Source of the DNA: a virus
Taxonomy: Duplodnaviria; Caudoviricetes
Reading direction: 5' to 3' (one strand)
Length of the DNA: 64,000 nucleotides
Virus record (IMG/VR): IMGVR_UViG_3300035428_000130
Span: 1-64,000 of that record
Positions within the stretch are counted from its first letter, which is position 1, and each line of letters opens with the position of its first letter. Below the pieces are notes generated by a model that saw nothing but the letters and a program-made list of their open reading frames with translations, was not told the origin of the DNA and did not search any database. Made by a program: the position numbers and the translations under genes. Shown here piece after piece: positions 33,789 through 39,194 of this stretch.

Positions 33789-34220
33789 TTAATCACTTTG
33801 AATAATTTCGATTCCAACATTCCCTTTACCCAACTCCATAATAAGATCGGATAGAGTATTATCGGAATAATCGACTTCCTTAAAAAGTACGATCCACCCA
33901 CGCTGAATTGCCGCCAAACACTTGTCATATTGTTCCTTATAATACTCGTCTTCCAACAAGATATCATCTAAGGTATGGCCTGCCCAACCATAACGAGCCA
34001 CAAAGAAATCGTCAAGCTCTTCCTTGGTTGTAAGTTTATCGCCCTCTTCTGTTTCGTTGTAATTGCTGGAGGCAGTCAATACCATATCAATCAGCTTATT
34101 GAAACATGCAAGAGCCGGATATTTCTTTAAGGTTTCTTCGTCATAGCTGGGTGTTTGCTGGTAGGCAATAATGTAGCTGGAGCTACTACTGTTTGTTGCA
34201 AAATCTTGACGAATCTTCAT
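33789..34220 (-). CDS. TNSSSSS-leader protein 1
   Basis: MKIRQDFATNSSSSSYII. Confidence 0.8.
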   Translation of the reverse strand: MKIRQDFATNSSSSSYIIAYQQTPSYDEETLKKYPALACFNKLIDMVLTASSNYNETEEGDKLTTKEELDDFFVARYGWAGHTLDDILLEDEYYKEQYDKCLAAIQRGWIVLFKEVDYSDNTLSDLIMELGKGNVGIEIIQSD

Positions 34221-34226
34221 CTTATG

Positions 34227-34799
34227 CTAATCTCCCCATAGATACTTGTGGAAATCGGCGTATGTGCCAAACTTCTCTTTCCACCCAGCAACGATATCTG
34301 CCGGATTAAGGTTAAACTTCTGACATACAAAAGTAATGTACTCATTCTCATAAAGCTTTTTCCGCCTCTTATTGGCCTGCTTTACTTGAGCAAACACCTC
34401 ATCACGACTCACCCCATAGGTTTTCTCTAAGTAGCAGGACAAATCATACTCAGAATATTCAATGAACTGGCAAATCGGACAGAATTCCTCTGGTATAGAA
34501 TAGCGAACATCATCCATCTCCATAAATAGAATTGTCAAATCGTCGGCATCCAAACGCTTTAATGCGTTTTCAGAATAGTCCTCTCCGTCATCCTCAGAAG
34601 CTATACTCAGAATTAACTTGATAAGCTGTTCCTTTGAAAGCTCCAGCATCTCATCTGCACAGAATGTATGCCCGTTCACGCACTCAACCATCTCAGCTTC
34701 AGATAGTCCCATATCCCAGCCGCTTTCCGTTCGACCGCAGATATCACACGTATAACTGGAACTACTCGAATTAGTTACAAAATCAGATCTATATTTCAT
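34227..34799 (-). CDS. TNSSSSS-leader protein 2 (Cys-rich)
   Basis: MKYRSDFVTNSSSSSYTCDIC...CVNGHTFC...CPIC. Confidence 0.8.
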   Translation of the reverse strand: MKYRSDFVTNSSSSSYTCDICGRTESGWDMGLSEAEMVECVNGHTFCADEMLELSKEQLIKLILSIASEDDGEDYSENALKRLDADDLTILFMEMDDVRYSIPEEFCPICQFIEYSEYDLSCYLEKTYGVSRDEVFAQVKQANKRRKKLYENEYITFVCQKFNLNPADIVAGWKEKFGTYADFHKYLWGD

Positions 34800-34810
34800 T
34801 CATTCACCTC

Positions 34811-35326
34811 TTAATGATGGCTAAAGCTCTGCACTGTGAATTTACAGTTGGGCAAAATGTGATGTTCCAATTCAGAGCCGATGTTCGTATGATCCTCGTA
34901 TTCCAGCTCAACCAAATAACGGCGTTCTCCGATTTTCTCAATCAGCTTAGCGGCATACTGATTTGTCAAACGCAGCAGCTCGTTTTGACATTCCTTTGAG
35001 TTGTAGAAATCAGCGTAAGTAGCCCCTGGATGCTCTGCCTCCCACTTGCTTCTAAAAGTCTCTTTTTCACTGTTCCACCAACCACCACCACCATAACATA
35101 TGACATAATCAGCATCACCTTCAAAATCACACTTGAAATGATTCTTAATATCATCAAAGGCAATAGGTTCAGCAGCGGCAAAGTCAGCTTTAAGTCGCTC
35201 AACATAATCTGAACCAAAACGATGGCTCATTGCTTCGATCTGGGCTAAACCATCCTCTTTATCCTTGAATGCAAGAATAAAACTGCTGGAGCTACTATTG
35301 GTCACATAGTCGGTTCTTACCTTCAT
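34811..35326 (-). CDS. TNSSSSS-leader protein 3
   Basis: MKVRTDYVTNSSSSSFIL; ends SHH. Confidence 0.8.
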   Translation of the reverse strand: MKVRTDYVTNSSSSSFILAFKDKEDGLAQIEAMSHRFGSDYVERLKADFAAAEPIAFDDIKNHFKCDFEGDADYVICYGGGGWWNSEKETFRSKWEAEHPGATYADFYNSKECQNELLRLTNQYAAKLIEKIGERRYLVELEYEDHTNIGSELEHHILPNCKFTVQSFSHH

Positions 35327-35339
35327 TGTTCACCTCGTT

Positions 35340-35702
35340 TTAATCTGCGTCTCCACGATGAATCTCTTCCATAAACTTCTGAGGAATGTTGTTATATAGG
35401 AACGCATCTTCCCCATCAGTTTCACCCTCGTTTGTCCACTCGATGAATGAAGCTCCAAGATAATATTTATCATCTTCCAAAGCGTCTAACTTGTCGAAAA
35501 ACTCAAGCTCATTCTTGACTTGGTTGTACTCTTCTGCTTTGATTTGTGCTCCGGTCTGGATGTTCTCATCAAGGAGCCGTAGTCCGAACTTGCCGAACTC
35601 TTCCTTCATATATTCACGTAGCTCATCACAAAGATCGACTCTTGCTACACAAACATAGCTACTGGAAGAACTATTAGTTACAAAATCACGCCTAATTTTC
35701 AT
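35340..35702 (-). CDS. TNSSSSS-leader protein 4
   Basis: MKIRRDFVTNSSSSSYVC. Confidence 0.8.
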   Translation of the reverse strand: MKIRRDFVTNSSSSSYVCVARVDLCDELREYMKEEFGKFGLRLLDENIQTGAQIKAEEYNQVKNELEFFDKLDALEDDKYYLGASFIEWTNEGETDGEDAFLYNNIPQKFMEEIHRGDAD

Positions 35703-35715
35703 ATGTACCTCTCTG

Positions 35716-36270
35716 TTATAGCTTACAGGCCAACAAAATTTCTTTTGTTATGATACGGCTATTTTCGACTGTCAACTTCTCAAGCTTCTTCAAATCAAAT
35801 TCATTCTTTTGAAATTTGAACTGAATCCATTTAGGTTCCGACTCTCTCCAATCAAGCCAGCTATCAGGCTTTTCTTTGTTGAGAACTTCCTTAACCATCT
35901 CAAGCAGACGTTCTCCAGCTTTTTTAGACTGAACAAATCCGCTAAGGTCGTAACCTATTCCTCTTGGACTCCAATACTCGCCATATTCTGGCCTGGGATC
36001 AGGAAAATCATAAGGGTGCCATGGGATACCTTTTCTTGGATGCTTCTGAAGCTCTGGATATTCACACGTTGATTCTCCATTTTCATTTACCCTACCAACT
36101 CCAATGGCTGATTTGGTAACTCCATCAGCCAGCAGAGCAAATTCGGTCTTGCACTCTTCACAGGTTCCAAAGGATGTTCCACAGCCACTAACATGGCCTG
36201 CAACAGCAAAATCACAGCCACAATTTGGACAGCCATATTTTAGGAAGTCATGAAAACTTATTGCAATCAT
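35716..36270 (-). CDS. Zn-ribbon hypothetical protein
   Basis: CPNC, CEEC. Confidence 0.65.
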   Translation of the reverse strand: MIAISFHDFLKYGCPNCGCDFAVAGHVSGCGTSFGTCEECKTEFALLADGVTKSAIGVGRVNENGESTCEYPELQKHPRKGIPWHPYDFPDPRPEYGEYWSPRGIGYDLSGFVQSKKAGERLLEMVKEVLNKEKPDSWLDWRESEPKWIQFKFQKNEFDLKKLEKLTVENSRIITKEILLACKL

Positions 36271-36282
36271 ATCGACCCTCCA

Positions 36283-36579
36283 CTAATGATGGTTTTCATA
36301 TTCAACAACGCTAACTTCATCGCTTCCATATGGGCTACCACTGCGCCAGCCAATAGCGTTATGTATGAAATTTTCAAATGCACCATCATCCGCCCCGTCT
36401 CCGCATTCATATGTGATTTGTCCTTTGGGTGGAAGTACAAACCGGCCTTTTGCATCTTCCAGCATCTTTGATACGAGAATGACTGCAACCTCTTCTGAAG
36501 TCAATTCTCTACCAGTATTGTTTGTAATTATAAAACTGGAAGAGCTGCTGTTGGTCACAAAATCTACTCTTGTTTTCAT
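36283..36579 (-). CDS. TNSSSSS-leader protein 5
   Basis: MKTRVDFVTNSSSSSFII; ends NHH. Confidence 0.8.
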   Translation of the reverse strand: MKTRVDFVTNSSSSSFIITNNTGRELTSEEVAVILVSKMLEDAKGRFVLPPKGQITYECGDGADDGAFENFIHNAIGWRSGSPYGSDEVSVVEYENHH

Positions 36580-36779
36580 ACTGGATTGTTCACCTCCAAA
36601 TATCTCTCAAAATACGAAAGCATTTCATTTTCCTCCAGATAAAAAGGATCTTTGCCCTCGCTTCTTATCATACTAAATACATTCTCCATAAGCTGTCCAA
36701 AGCGCCATTCTGGAACCTGCGTCGCCCAAAGCAAAGAAAGCTTATTTAAGAATATATAGATACGACTTGGATCTCTCAT
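36576..36779 (-). CDS. Small conserved phage protein (YihD/DUF1040-like)
   Basis: MRDPSRI...W...PEWRFGQL. Confidence 0.6.
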   Translation of the reverse strand: MRDPSRIYIFLNKLSLLWATQVPEWRFGQLMENVFSMIRSEGKDPFYLEENEMLSYFERYLEVNNPV

Positions 36780-36791
36780 GCCAACCTCTCC

Positions 36792-37544
36792 TTAATCAAG
36801 CCAGCGATTATCCAGGTATACAAATCCATACACGCAGCCTGCCATAAGCATCAGCCAGAAAACCCAGAAAATAACCATTGCAACAGTTTCATTTCCCTGT
36901 TTACTTTCAATCACTTCTGCCGGAGTTGCATCTTCATACAGATATGATTCGCTGACCATTGTTTTGTCTTTAAGGTTTGCCAACACTGTTCCGGCTATGT
37001 TGTTATAAGTGACATTGTAGTAAAACCGATCATTCATCCCATGATAAATGTAGTTCGTCCTATTTTTCACTCCAGCCTCACTTAGACTAAGCCGATGAAC
37101 AGGGAGTGATATAGTATCGCTTGGAAAATCGGAACCACAGAAGTTGATTGTATCGGTTTGACGGCTATCACTCCACACACGATCCCAGGTGTAATAAACC
37201 TCTGTTTCAGTGTGCGTTTTTCCATTAGAGTCTGTCTTTGTAACTGTTCTGGTATGCCTGGTGTAATGCTCTTTAACCTTCTGGATATAGATATAACCGT
37301 TTCCAATTTCGTCATATGTAACTGGCGAATTAGTCATAATTTCTCCATACACCAGAGCATTGCCAAAGTTTGTATCCATACCATAGCGAAACTGCTGCTC
37401 ATCTTCAATAACAGTTGCAGTCATGTAACGCTCGGCCTCCTGAGCGATACCTTCACTGATTTTATTACCAATCAGGAGGCCAAGCATAAGCATTACCAGA
37501 ACAATAATTACACTGAACAGAACCTCTCTCTTTGTAACCCTCAT
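36792..37544 (-). CDS. Two-TM membrane protein, LemA partner
   Basis: N- and C-terminal hydrophobic helices; adjacent to lemA. Confidence 0.7.
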   Translation of the reverse strand: MRVTKREVLFSVIIVLVMLMLGLLIGNKISEGIAQEAERYMTATVIEDEQQFRYGMDTNFGNALVYGEIMTNSPVTYDEIGNGYIYIQKVKEHYTRHTRTVTKTDSNGKTHTETEVYYTWDRVWSDSRQTDTINFCGSDFPSDTISLPVHRLSLSEAGVKNRTNYIYHGMNDRFYYNVTYNNIAGTVLANLKDKTMVSESYLYEDATPAEVIESKQGNETVAMVIFWVFWLMLMAGCVYGFVYLDNRWLD

Positions 37545-37546
37545 TG

Positions 37547-38101
37547 TTAATCAAAGAGATTTTGCGGGGCATCCACTGGGGCACCATAGTCCGTATATGT
37601 TGCCTCAATCTTCTCATATCCCAGCATACTCAGAATAATGTTGCTGGGGAAAGAGCGAATCGTCTTATTGTAAGACCGAACCTGCTCGTTATAATTGTTG
37701 CGATACTGGGCAATCTGATTCTCAGTCATTGCCAGCTCATTCATCAACTGCTGGTAGTTCTCGTTGGCTTTCAGTTCAGGATAGGCTTCGGCCACTGCGT
37801 TGATCGCAAGCTGAGCCTCTTCAATATTGCCGCTCTGGACACTGGCTCGTGCCGCAACAACTTCCTTCAAGGTGTTTCCTTCGTACTCCTGATATGCCTG
37901 CACAGCATCCACCAGGTTATACACTAAATCAACCCGTCGCTTTTCAGCCACGTTGATATTGGCCTGGGCACCGTTAATCTGCTCTTCCAAGAAAACAGCC
38001 TTGTTGTTCGTGCTGGCAAACATACCTACTACCAACAGGATAAAGGCCAGGACAATGCCGCCGATAATCAGTCCAGTCTTGTGTTTGTTGACAAAATTCA
38101 T
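37547..38101 (-). CDS. lemA: LemA family protein
   Basis: TM anchor, RRVDLVYNLV, EAYPELKANENY..LM.EL..TEN.I, YN..VR.YN, FP. Confidence 0.92.
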   Translation of the reverse strand: MNFVNKHKTGLIIGGIVLAFILLVVGMFASTNNKAVFLEEQINGAQANINVAEKRRVDLVYNLVDAVQAYQEYEGNTLKEVVAARASVQSGNIEEAQLAINAVAEAYPELKANENYQQLMNELAMTENQIAQYRNNYNEQVRSYNKTIRSFPSNIILSMLGYEKIEATYTDYGAPVDAPQNLFD

Positions 38102-38117
38102 AGTAAACTCTCCTTAT

Positions 38118-39194
38118 TTATACGGTTTTCTCAATGTGATCGCAGAGAACAATCTGGGGACGAATAGGGCAACCGCCCATACAAGACATCCGATTTTTAC
38201 AGTCTGGGCAAGAGGTTCGGAAGTGATTTCTGAAATCCTCAAATTGCGGACTATCCCAGGCGCTTTGGATGGTGTCATTGCTGATATCATAAGCCCATCT
38301 CATCTCTTGATTATCAAAAGAACACGGAAGGGCTTTCATATCAGAAGTAATATACATGCTCCAACGAGCACCCTCACAGGTATCAATACTCTCGCGCGAG
38401 ATATTCTTGGTGAGATTGAGTACAGCAGGAATTGAACAGGAGTCAAACCCAATCTTGAAATTGAACTTCTGATTGTCCACTATCTCAAAGAATTTCTTCA
38501 CTCGCAGATCGTTGATATGGAGCACATTTTCCTCACAGCCAAGGCCGACGGGCTTATGGAGCAGAAAGATTACAGCATTAATGCCGACAGGGAAATCATT
38601 GTGCTGGAGACGTTCAATGGCCTCGTCGATAGAATTGTTACCCAATACATAGTGTATATTGGTCTTGATACCAGCATCTAAAAGCATCTGAACTGCTTTT
38701 AAGGTATGCTCCTGACGATACCATGAAATCGCTACTGCACCACAATATTGTTTGCAGAGCCGCACAATCTCGTCTGTAAACCCAAGGCCAGATGAGGTAA
38801 AGTTGGGAACGATATTGTTTTCACGGCAGTAAGCAAGAATCTCCGCAAAGTTTTCATGCTGGTCAACATCGCCTCGCCCACCAAGGGCAAGCTGGAAAGT
38901 CTTACCTTTGCATTCATCCACAATGCGTTTGAAATTCTCCAGCGTCATGTTCGGCACTTTGGTTTTCAGCCCATTTTGATAGCACTGGACACCAGACTTG
39001 ATACAAAGACCGCTGGCACCATGGACGCAATGCCCCATTACACCAACGTCAATCAGTTCGGGGAACGCTGTCATAAACGGATCTACATCGGTATCTTTTC
39101 CGTTATTGTCGATAATTCCGCTCCTTGCATAAAAACCAGTTTTAGGGTCAAACACAGACACAAAGCGGTTCTTATGGTCAAGTTTCTTAATCAC
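38118..39194 (-). CDS. Radical SAM protein with SPASM domain and atypical Cys spacing
   Basis: ELIDVGVMGHCVHGASGLCIKSGVQCY, LGGRGD, CEGAR...LPCSF, CPDC..RMSCMGGCP. Confidence 0.88.
   Translation of the reverse strand: MIKKLDHKNRFVSVFDPKTGFYARSGIIDNNGKDTDVDPFMTAFPELIDVGVMGHCVHGASGLCIKSGVQCYQNGLKTKVPNMTLENFKRIVDECKGKTFQLALGGRGDVDQHENFAEILAYCRENNIVPNFTSSGLGFTDEIVRLCKQYCGAVAISWYRQEHTLKAVQMLLDAGIKTNIHYVLGNNSIDEAIERLQHNDFPVGINAVIFLLHKPVGLGCEENVLHINDLRVKKFFEIVDNQKFNFKIGFDSCSIPAVLNLTKNISRESIDTCEGARWSMYITSDMKALPCSFDNQEMRWAYDISNDTIQSAWDSPQFEDFRNHFRTSCPDCKNRMSCMGGCPIRPQIVLCDHIEKTV

Follow-up and report, generated by a model that had tools for sequence, protein, structure and literature searches.

A shared N-terminal tag on unrelated phage proteins and a linked radical SAM/SPASM enzyme that probably acts on it

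The closest described systems are built on enzymes that combine a radical S-adenosylmethionine (SAM) barrel with a SPASM auxiliary-cluster domain, such as SuiB, which acts on SuiA (the streptide Lys-Trp cross-link), SkfB and PqqE. In these systems the enzyme gene adjoins the gene of its substrate, which enters the barrel as an extended peptide; a similar gene neighbourhood was found, and the same mode of entry predicted, at the locus described here. The anaerobic sulfatase-maturating radical SAM/SPASM enzymes anSME and AtsB, which like the present system are restricted to anaerobes, act on whole proteins: each serves several client sulfatases, modifying a serine or cysteine within a short motif close to the N-terminus. 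Prochlorosin-type systems (ProcM with about 30 ProcA substrates) and the NHLP/Nif11 leader families pair one enzyme with many paralogous substrate genes, whose products join a conserved N-terminal recognition sequence to a hypervariable remainder, while the internal proteins of phage T4 are several unrelated proteins with a common N-terminal sequence of about 10 residues. The present locus resembles each of these in part. It occupies positions 33789 to 39194 of the window, a stretch of 64,000 nucleotides (positions 1 to 64,000) from the IMG/VR virus record IMGVR_UViG_3300035428_000130, and comprises a radical SAM/SPASM gene and five tandem genes with dissimilar products that begin with the same tag. 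These five genes probably encode clients of the enzyme, for which the tag would be both a recognition element and the likely site of modification. Because the pair of enzyme and tag recurs in thousands of genes of phages and anaerobes and is undescribed, it is probably a protein-modification system not previously recognised.

The tagged gene array in the window

The window is part of a 100,965-base virus record that is about 75% complete and carries nearly all of its genes on the minus strand. The enzyme, the five tagged genes (all open reading frames, ORFs, with lengths in amino acids, aa) and the segments coding for the tag are as follows.

38118-39194, minus strand: radical SAM/SPASM enzyme, 358 aa, proposed modifier of the tag; recognised by Pfam SPASM and by profile matches
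36283-36579, minus strand: tagged client, 98 aa, starts MKTRVDFVTNSSSSSF, C-terminus EYENHH, body cluster 5/6; partner in the complex model
35340-35702, minus strand: tagged client, 120 aa, starts MKIRRDFVTNSSSSSY, body cluster 9/10
34811-35326, minus strand: tagged client, 171 aa, starts MKVRTDYVTNSSSSSF, conserved C-terminal ELEYEDH...ELEH...SHH, body cluster 0
34227-34799, minus strand: tagged client, 190 aa, starts MKYRSDFVTNSSSSSY, body cluster 2/3
33789-34220, minus strand: tagged client, 143 aa, starts MKIRQDFATNSSSSSY, body cluster 1/2
36532-36579, minus strand: tag-coding segment (codons 1-16) of the 98-aa gene
35655-35702, 35279-35326, 34752-34799 and 34173-34220, minus strand: tag-coding segments of the other four genes

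The common start of the five proteins spans 16 residues, MKxRxD(F/Y)xTNSSSSS(F/Y). An earlier note, made from the sequence alone, had claimed that five ORFs share this leader at residue 1, and the claim was upheld by the places of the ORFs, by scans of the window and by the ribosome-binding sites. A six-frame scan found the protein motif only at the five tagged-gene starts; a degenerate DNA pattern for T-N-S5 matched seven times against 0.25 expected, a number reached in 0/100 shuffles, and five of the seven matches were the tagged genes. When the whole virus record was searched with a tag profile, only the same five genes were matched. The tag truly begins at residue 1, since a Shine-Dalgarno-like GGAGG/GAGGT precedes the ATG by 5-10 nt in all five genes. 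The serine codons of the tag mix AGY with TCN and differ between genes (AGT AGT AGC TCC AG. / TCG AGT AGT TCC AG. / AGC AGC TCT TCC AG.), as the note had observed.

Beyond the tag, the proteins were confirmed to be dissimilar and acidic over their range of 98-190 aa: isoelectric points (pI) lay between 4.3 and 5.1, and no pair of bodies (residue 21 onward) matched by BLASTP below E = 0.01. Two clients do end in HH, as had been noted (98-aa client, NHH; 171-aa client, SHH), and the 190-aa client (34227-34799) has Cys-rich, zinc-ribbon-like motifs directly after the tag. Gene coordinates placed the radical SAM/SPASM gene, lemA and a membrane protein gene upstream on the same strand, in agreement with the note, and added two untagged genes within the array, at 36576-36779 (67 aa) and 35716-36270 (184 aa). 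Intergenic gaps of -4 to 16 nt, all the way from the radical SAM gene (38118-39194) to position 33789, give this part of the window the look of a single operon. RNA-library contigs from four metatranscriptome runs in three studies span much of 33.9-39.3 kb, which is not proof of transcription as such libraries may contain DNA. The phage was present in mouse-gut metagenomes of 12 studies, and a nucleotide search of 50,697 deposited phage genomes gave no match.

Linkage, spread and client bodies

Tag and enzyme were found together from whichever side the search began. Starting from the tag, a scan of IMG/VR for D[FY][VA]TNSSS on contigs of up to 416 kb returned 74 viral loci, each with 1-8 ORFs whose product begins with the tag, and approximately 69 of these had an enzyme homologue on the same strand (89-738 bits). 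The same pattern, applied to one genome per prokaryote species, returned 79 cellular loci, with the enzyme adjacent in 69. Starting from the enzyme, a profile search identified 78 new viral loci; tag ORFs were present in 72, and the sequence of the remaining six breaks off within 3.3 kb downstream of the enzyme. Two seeming exceptions, where a tag locus had no enzyme nearby, carried it at another place in their record or genome. Co-occurrence of motif and enzyme across genomes, which the earlier note had proposed to look for, was therefore borne out in both search directions (~69/74, 69/79 and 72/78). Enzyme identity to the window copy ranged across loci from ~85% down to less than 40%. Two distant relatives of the 171-aa client (57% and 32% identity) lie on phage contigs just downstream of a homologous enzyme, and each contig has three more tagged genes from other families.

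The note had described the system as phage-encoded, and here it needs correction: the system is not phage-specific, since a two-gene form is common in genomes of Clostridia. In this commonest cellular form the gene for a tagged protein of ~124 aa lies immediately upstream of the enzyme gene; among the hosts are Lachnospiraceae, Oscillospiraceae, Dorea and Lacrimispora, as well as single metagenome-assembled genomes (MAGs) of Methanobacterium and Desulfosporosinus. The enzyme occurred in 10 of 300 sampled genomes of one class, and its distribution is sporadic, an accessory pattern. In the Desulfosporosinus MAG (L141:2396-9184), the cassette lies beside a metallo-beta-lactamase-fold protein, a 929-aa trypsin-like protein with a STAND-NTPase domain and an integron-cassette-type protein, a setting that resembles a defence island. 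A gene of the XRE helix-turn-helix type was situated directly upstream of the cellular cassette in at least two genomes (L091:7480-7836 and L135:7455-7781).

A tag profile of 36 columns, built from 60 sequences, was searched against 1.84 billion cluster representatives (E <= 1e-3) and found 15,433 protein clusters (clustered at 50% identity), the match starting at residue 1 in nearly every case. Over the best 148 representatives, the logo read M1 K2 (I)3 R4 x D6 F7 V8 T9 N10 S11-S15 F16; a variant, MKxRxGFVSNSSSSSF, also occurs among database proteins, as in P0223. Among P0128-P0131, P0153, P0180 and P0223 there are some chains with two tag modules, which could be true fusions or merged gene calls, and P0129 contains an internal DFVTNSSSTSF without the MKxR start. 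Co-variation was evaluated in 68 non-redundant loci with at least two tags, only about nine of which carry rare variants. Pairs of paralogues from the same genome agreed at position 4 (R/K) in a proportion of 1.00 (shuffle mean 0.90, maximum 0.94), at position 6 (D/G) in 0.985 (mean 0.925, maximum 0.965) and at position 14 in 0.965 (mean 0.908, maximum 0.949), while positions 3, 7 and 16 showed no excess agreement. That rare variants are common to non-homologous paralogues of one genome fits a shared partner.

In databases the clients are listed as 'hypothetical protein' and the enzyme as 'SPASM domain-containing protein'; Pfam, NCBIfam and PADLOC gave no match for the five window clients, for which there was only a weak match to phrog_7397, and the ESM Atlas yielded mostly viral clusters, all named 'hypothetical protein'. 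PADLOC, which models known anti-phage defence systems, gave no match when applied to the window enzyme together with its clients, and generic weak matches to viperin (pVip) for cellular homologues only. A literature search on the motif strings, and on radical SAM/SPASM with phage, ribosomally synthesised peptides with post-translational modifications (RiPPs) or anti-defence, found no relevant paper.

The bodies behind the tag are diverse. Clustering of 341 unique tagged proteins produced 56 body clusters, with a median body pI of 4.5 and 96% of values below 5.5; an earlier clustering of the 224 viral tagged proteins alone gave 37, with the window's five proteins in five different clusters. When the 14 largest of the 37 viral clusters were compared using HHalign, one pair was related (96.6%) and all other comparisons gave 17% or less. 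AlphaFold models were obtained for two unrelated families, the 171-aa family (mean pLDDT, i.e., predicted local distance difference test, 89.8; residues 1-10 below 50) and the 124-aa cellular family (mean 85.6; residues 1-11 below 50). The first core strand begins at about residue 13 in one model and about residue 17 in the other. As the tail has low confidence in both families and the bodies are non-homologous, the tag is, on these models, a free tail held by the first strand of small domains that are unrelated in other respects. The 171-aa model matched nothing at E <= 1e-3 in Foldseek searches of PDB and BFVD, and helical hairpins only in VIA wide (best Z 5.4); the best Z for the 124-aa model was 4.2. 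Such an absence of fold matches is no proof of new folds. Many unrelated body clusters end shortly after their final hydrophobic strand, in HH, H, GY, NY, HMG, NVG, VGC or acidic pairs, and the last His is invariant in the 171-aa family.

Enzyme, predicted complex and rival explanations

The 358-aa enzyme passed the Pfam SPASM model (PF13186) with 24.0 bits against a cut-off of 21.5, while Radical_SAM (PF04055) scored 22.5 bits against a gathering cut-off of 29.5 and TIGR04085 26.1 against 27. It was matched by phrog_7293 (6.5e-27); NCBIfam gave only sub-threshold matches to assorted SPASM maturases, with no equivalog at its cut-off. A search of PDB with the single enzyme sequence found no match. 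The profile of an alignment of 19 diverse homologues (A3) matched SuiB (5v1q, 2.7e-6), SkfB (6efn, 3.6e-5) and PqqE (6c8v, 3.3e-4) among solved structures, aligning across the barrel with the first two; it further reached BtrN, and anSME only at E 0.13-0.18 in the SPASM part.

In the window enzyme the motif for the SAM-cleaving 4Fe-4S cluster is expanded to CX7CX6C (C56, C64, C71). Its three cysteines are conserved in 19/19 aligned homologues with a spacing that differs by clade: CX5CX3C in enzymes of the L003 type, and the canonical CX3CX2C in a distant clade (L057, L064, L066, L071, L076) that lacks the last ~30 residues and is thus twitch-like. The GGE-like motif reads ALGGRGD; across A3, ALGG.G[DN] (GGE position), VPN.T.SG, CGAVA and KTNIH are invariant. 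Of the SPASM cysteines (C253, C273, C291, C329, C332, C338, C342 and C351), C253, C273, C291 and C332 are invariant. The barrel is preceded by a conserved 55-residue N-terminal extension (F15, G20, G26, D38-P39-F40, P45 and D49); Pfam and NCBIfam recognised no domain within residues 1-55, a stretch too short for a RiPP recognition element (RRE, ~85 residues). A LAGLIDADG-type intein splits the tag-linked enzyme gene in two phages (L035:3972-6308 and L039:5007-7367; Intein_splicing 3.5e-10, LAGLIDADG_3 2e-6), giving ORFs of ~780 aa, and one cellular homologue (G220:C71:73416-74471) has an in-frame TGA that could reflect a pseudogene, a selenocysteine codon or a sequencing error.

Modelling of a leader-enzyme complex, another check named in the earlier note, placed tag residues 1-11 in the active-site barrel. 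The model comprised the enzyme (alignment A3), SAM, three 4Fe-4S clusters and the 98-aa client (alignment A4), and gave ipSAE interface scores of 0.75, 0.76 and 0.64 against 0.01 for the best control; in calibration the mark was reached by 58/80 solved complexes and 2/110 mismatched pairs. Runs agreed in at least 55% of contacts. The confident interface on the client side consisted of exactly residues 1-11, and on the enzyme side of residues 19-26, 34, 36, 38, 47, 49, 101, 103, 129, 131-133, 152-155, 177, 179, 181, 206-207, 209, 211, 247, 251, 268-269 and 271, most of them at or next to positions conserved in A3. In the model, tag residues 1-5 run along enzyme residues 19-24 and K2 contacts D38 and residue 269, while D6 and F7 contact G20, Q101, N131, G152, A153 and N206, neighbours of the SAM-binding motifs. 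The model supports binding, and suggests a modification site near D6-T9. The core of the earlier note, that one SPASM enzyme serves several clients through a shared recognition tag, is thus supported by linkage, free tail and predicted docking, with modification itself being a prediction.

The proposed mechanism would proceed as follows. The clients would be small, acidic, independently folded proteins, their first ~11 residues (MKxRxDFxTNS) forming a free tail and the subsequent SSSS(F/Y)-hydrophobic stretch the first core strand. Tag residues 1-5 would pair as an extra strand with the conserved N-terminal extension of the enzyme (residues 19-26), with K2 lying against D38 and E268/S269, and residues 6-9 would enter the barrel beside the SAM-binding motifs (Q101, N131, G152-A153, N206). 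Hydrogen abstraction by a 5'-deoxyadenosyl radical, at a residue in the region of D6-N10, would then lead to one covalent change common to all clients. The chemistry of that change is a matter of guesswork. The foremost guess, itself short of an even chance, is a within-tag cross-link that joins F/Y7 to T9 or a serine through a C-C or ether bond; some other chemistry is nearly as plausible, oxidation of serine or threonine clearly less so, and epimerisation the least of these. Because D6/F7 and not the serines lie nearest the SAM-binding motifs in the model, serine oxidation of the sulfatase-maturase kind is only one of several possibilities. The five serines may line the exit of the active-site channel, act as cross-link partners or become oxidised. 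The variable bodies, which elsewhere include LRR (leucine-rich repeat) and BRCT modules, would be the working parts, needing the modified tag for stability or activity, and in phages would probably be host-directed effectors. A fuller version can be offered tentatively, and would sooner be doubted than accepted: that in phages of gut anaerobes and mobile cassettes of their hosts, a general tag-and-modify system is at work, in which one radical SAM enzyme puts an N-terminal modification of a new, radical-derived kind (e.g., an F7 cyclophane or ether staple) on a large group of fast-evolving, folded, acidic effectors, which require it for acting on host targets.

Several observations weigh against an enzyme that modifies the tag. 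The client reached a pLDDT of only 54-56 in the complex, which was predicted with its own alignments and ligands, unlike the calibration of the tool. The five invariant serines fell mostly outside the confident interface, and the enzyme has no leader-binding RRE domain recognisable from Pfam, NCBIfam or A3. One phage record, 78% complete, holds four tags with no enzyme detected, and since many loci are closely related, the counts of co-occurrence (~69/74, 69/79 and 72/78) exceed the number of independent events.

Among other explanations, the one that survives best takes the tag for a docking handle rather than a substrate, with bodies (LRR, BRCT, zinc-ribbon) that bring molecules to the enzyme or regulate it as pseudo-substrates. 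Pfam domains were found in only 2/55 body-cluster representatives, LRR_5 (4.6e-59) and BRCT (7.1e-9), and these sole recognisable bodies are protein-binding modules; moreover, nearly invariant tags are joined to hypervariable bodies, and the complex model speaks for binding only. However, in that model the tag occupies the place of the substrate in the barrel, beside the SAM motifs, with no room for a second one, and known SPASM relatives modify the bound peptide itself, so that a docking role was considered unlikely.

It was considered more unlikely still that the conserved first 10-16 residues serve as core for a RiPP or a peptide-derived cofactor, to be modified and then cleaved from bodies that are carriers (cf. 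the bottromycin follower peptide). SuiB, SkfB and PqqE all yield peptide products, the conserved part of the clients is the part that enters the active site in the model, and the same tag sequence is repeated across 15,433 clusters; but the cassette has no conserved protease or exporter beside it, the bodies are conserved, folded orthologous families with invariant residues of their own, and it would be odd for one identical product to be borne by five to ten different proteins.

Slightly less probable again is that the enzyme does not act on the tag at all, the tag being either a motif of a shared fold or a site of autocatalytic cleavage (pyruvoyl-type) at an Asn-Ser or Ser-Ser bond, which its sequence (N10-S11, Ser-Ser) permits. 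Residues ~13-20 form a core strand in both AlphaFold models, one fused protein retains an internal DFVTNSSSTSF without MKxR, and body clusters 0 and 1 show a weak C-terminal beta-alpha-beta similarity (HHalign 17%). Against this, residues 1-11 lie outside either fold, the bodies are non-homologous by HHalign and the linkage to the enzyme is near-obligate in both directions; hence, the leader does not appear to be merely a core strand of a shared fold, a contingency the earlier note had raised against itself. The tag was also considered as a catalytic motif (PP-loop, HAD-like or PIN-like) of an enzyme fold common to the clients, an idea dropped because the bodies are non-homologous and residues 1-11 lie outside the fold.

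Finally, that the tag sends proteins into the capsid (like the targeting sequence of T4 internal proteins) or to export, with the enzyme linkage secondary, is hardly credible: targeting signals typically take the form of short terminal tags shared by unrelated proteins, and the window LemA matches a PHROG labelled as a virion structural protein, but the cassette of two genes that is commonest in cells has no virion genes around it, the tag is hydrophilic and without signal-peptide character, the array lies among genes of nucleotide metabolism and replication rather than head genes, and LemA is a lineage-specific insert.

Neighbouring genes and comparison with known systems

Four untagged genes lie between the enzyme and the tagged genes or among the latter.

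37547-38101, minus strand: LemA, between enzyme and tag array
36792-37544, minus strand: membrane protein with two transmembrane segments, phrog_3886 (3.2e-68), between enzyme and tag array
36576-36779, minus strand: untagged protein of 67 aa
35716-36270, minus strand: untagged, orphan Cys-rich protein of 184 aa, inside the tag array

LemA and the membrane protein were found in one prophage and, among viral loci, in the 20 closest only; the loci L001 and L003 lack them. They were dropped as parts of the system, being confined to the closest phage lineage; they are lineage-specific inserts and not core parts. Their genes (36792-38101) form a translationally coupled pair, and the label 'virion structural protein' carried by the PHROG of LemA looks doubtful for a LemA-family membrane protein. 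In a related strain (two mouse-gut RNA-library assemblies), window positions 36549-36790, including the 67-aa gene, are replaced by 38 nt, and the following gene retains the tag start in different codons (MKIRHDYVTN). The 184-aa orphan had no homologue among 157 searched loci and no Pfam family; its N-terminus has a zinc-ribbon-like cluster (CPNCGC...C...CEEC), and its gene is probably an insert in the array.

The tag marks at least 15,433 clusters, none of which has a name from Pfam, NCBIfam, a PHROG function or PADLOC, and all tagged proteins depend on it, whatever its role. If the enzyme modifies the tag, this would be a large, unrecognised class of radical post-translational modification on whole folded proteins, possibly with new chemistry; its recognition element, at 11-16 residues, would be compact enough to be grafted as a tool, and it would open a common way into dozens of gut-phage gene families that are orphans. 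If the effector reading were also true, the system would match RiPP biosynthesis at the level of proteins and add a new class of maturation for phage effectors. The phage was found in mouse-gut metagenomes, which puts a model system within reach.

In relation to SuiB, SkfB and PqqE, the present enzyme differs in lacking a PqqD-like RRE, in place of which strand pairing with a 55-residue N-terminal extension is the predicted mode of tag binding, and in its cluster motif of CX7CX6C. Its substrates would be folded proteins of 100-670 aa and not short peptides, with up to ~10 non-homologous clients per enzyme, and the recognised and modified parts appear to be one N-terminal segment. With respect to anSME and AtsB, the sequences match marginally (E 0.13-0.18), and in the SPASM part only; (C/S)xPxR is absent from the tag MKxRxDFxTNSSSSSF, the clients are not sulfatases and have no common fold, and D6/F7, not a serine, are modelled nearest the SAM motifs. 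ProcM is a lanthipeptide synthetase and not a radical SAM enzyme, and the leader of ProcA is only recognised, the variable C-terminal core being modified, whereas here the tag itself is the predicted site and the variable parts are folded domains. Lastly, the signal of the T4 internal proteins is read by the prohead scaffold and protease, while the tag described here is linked to a radical SAM enzyme and is found also in two-gene cassettes of bacterial chromosomes.

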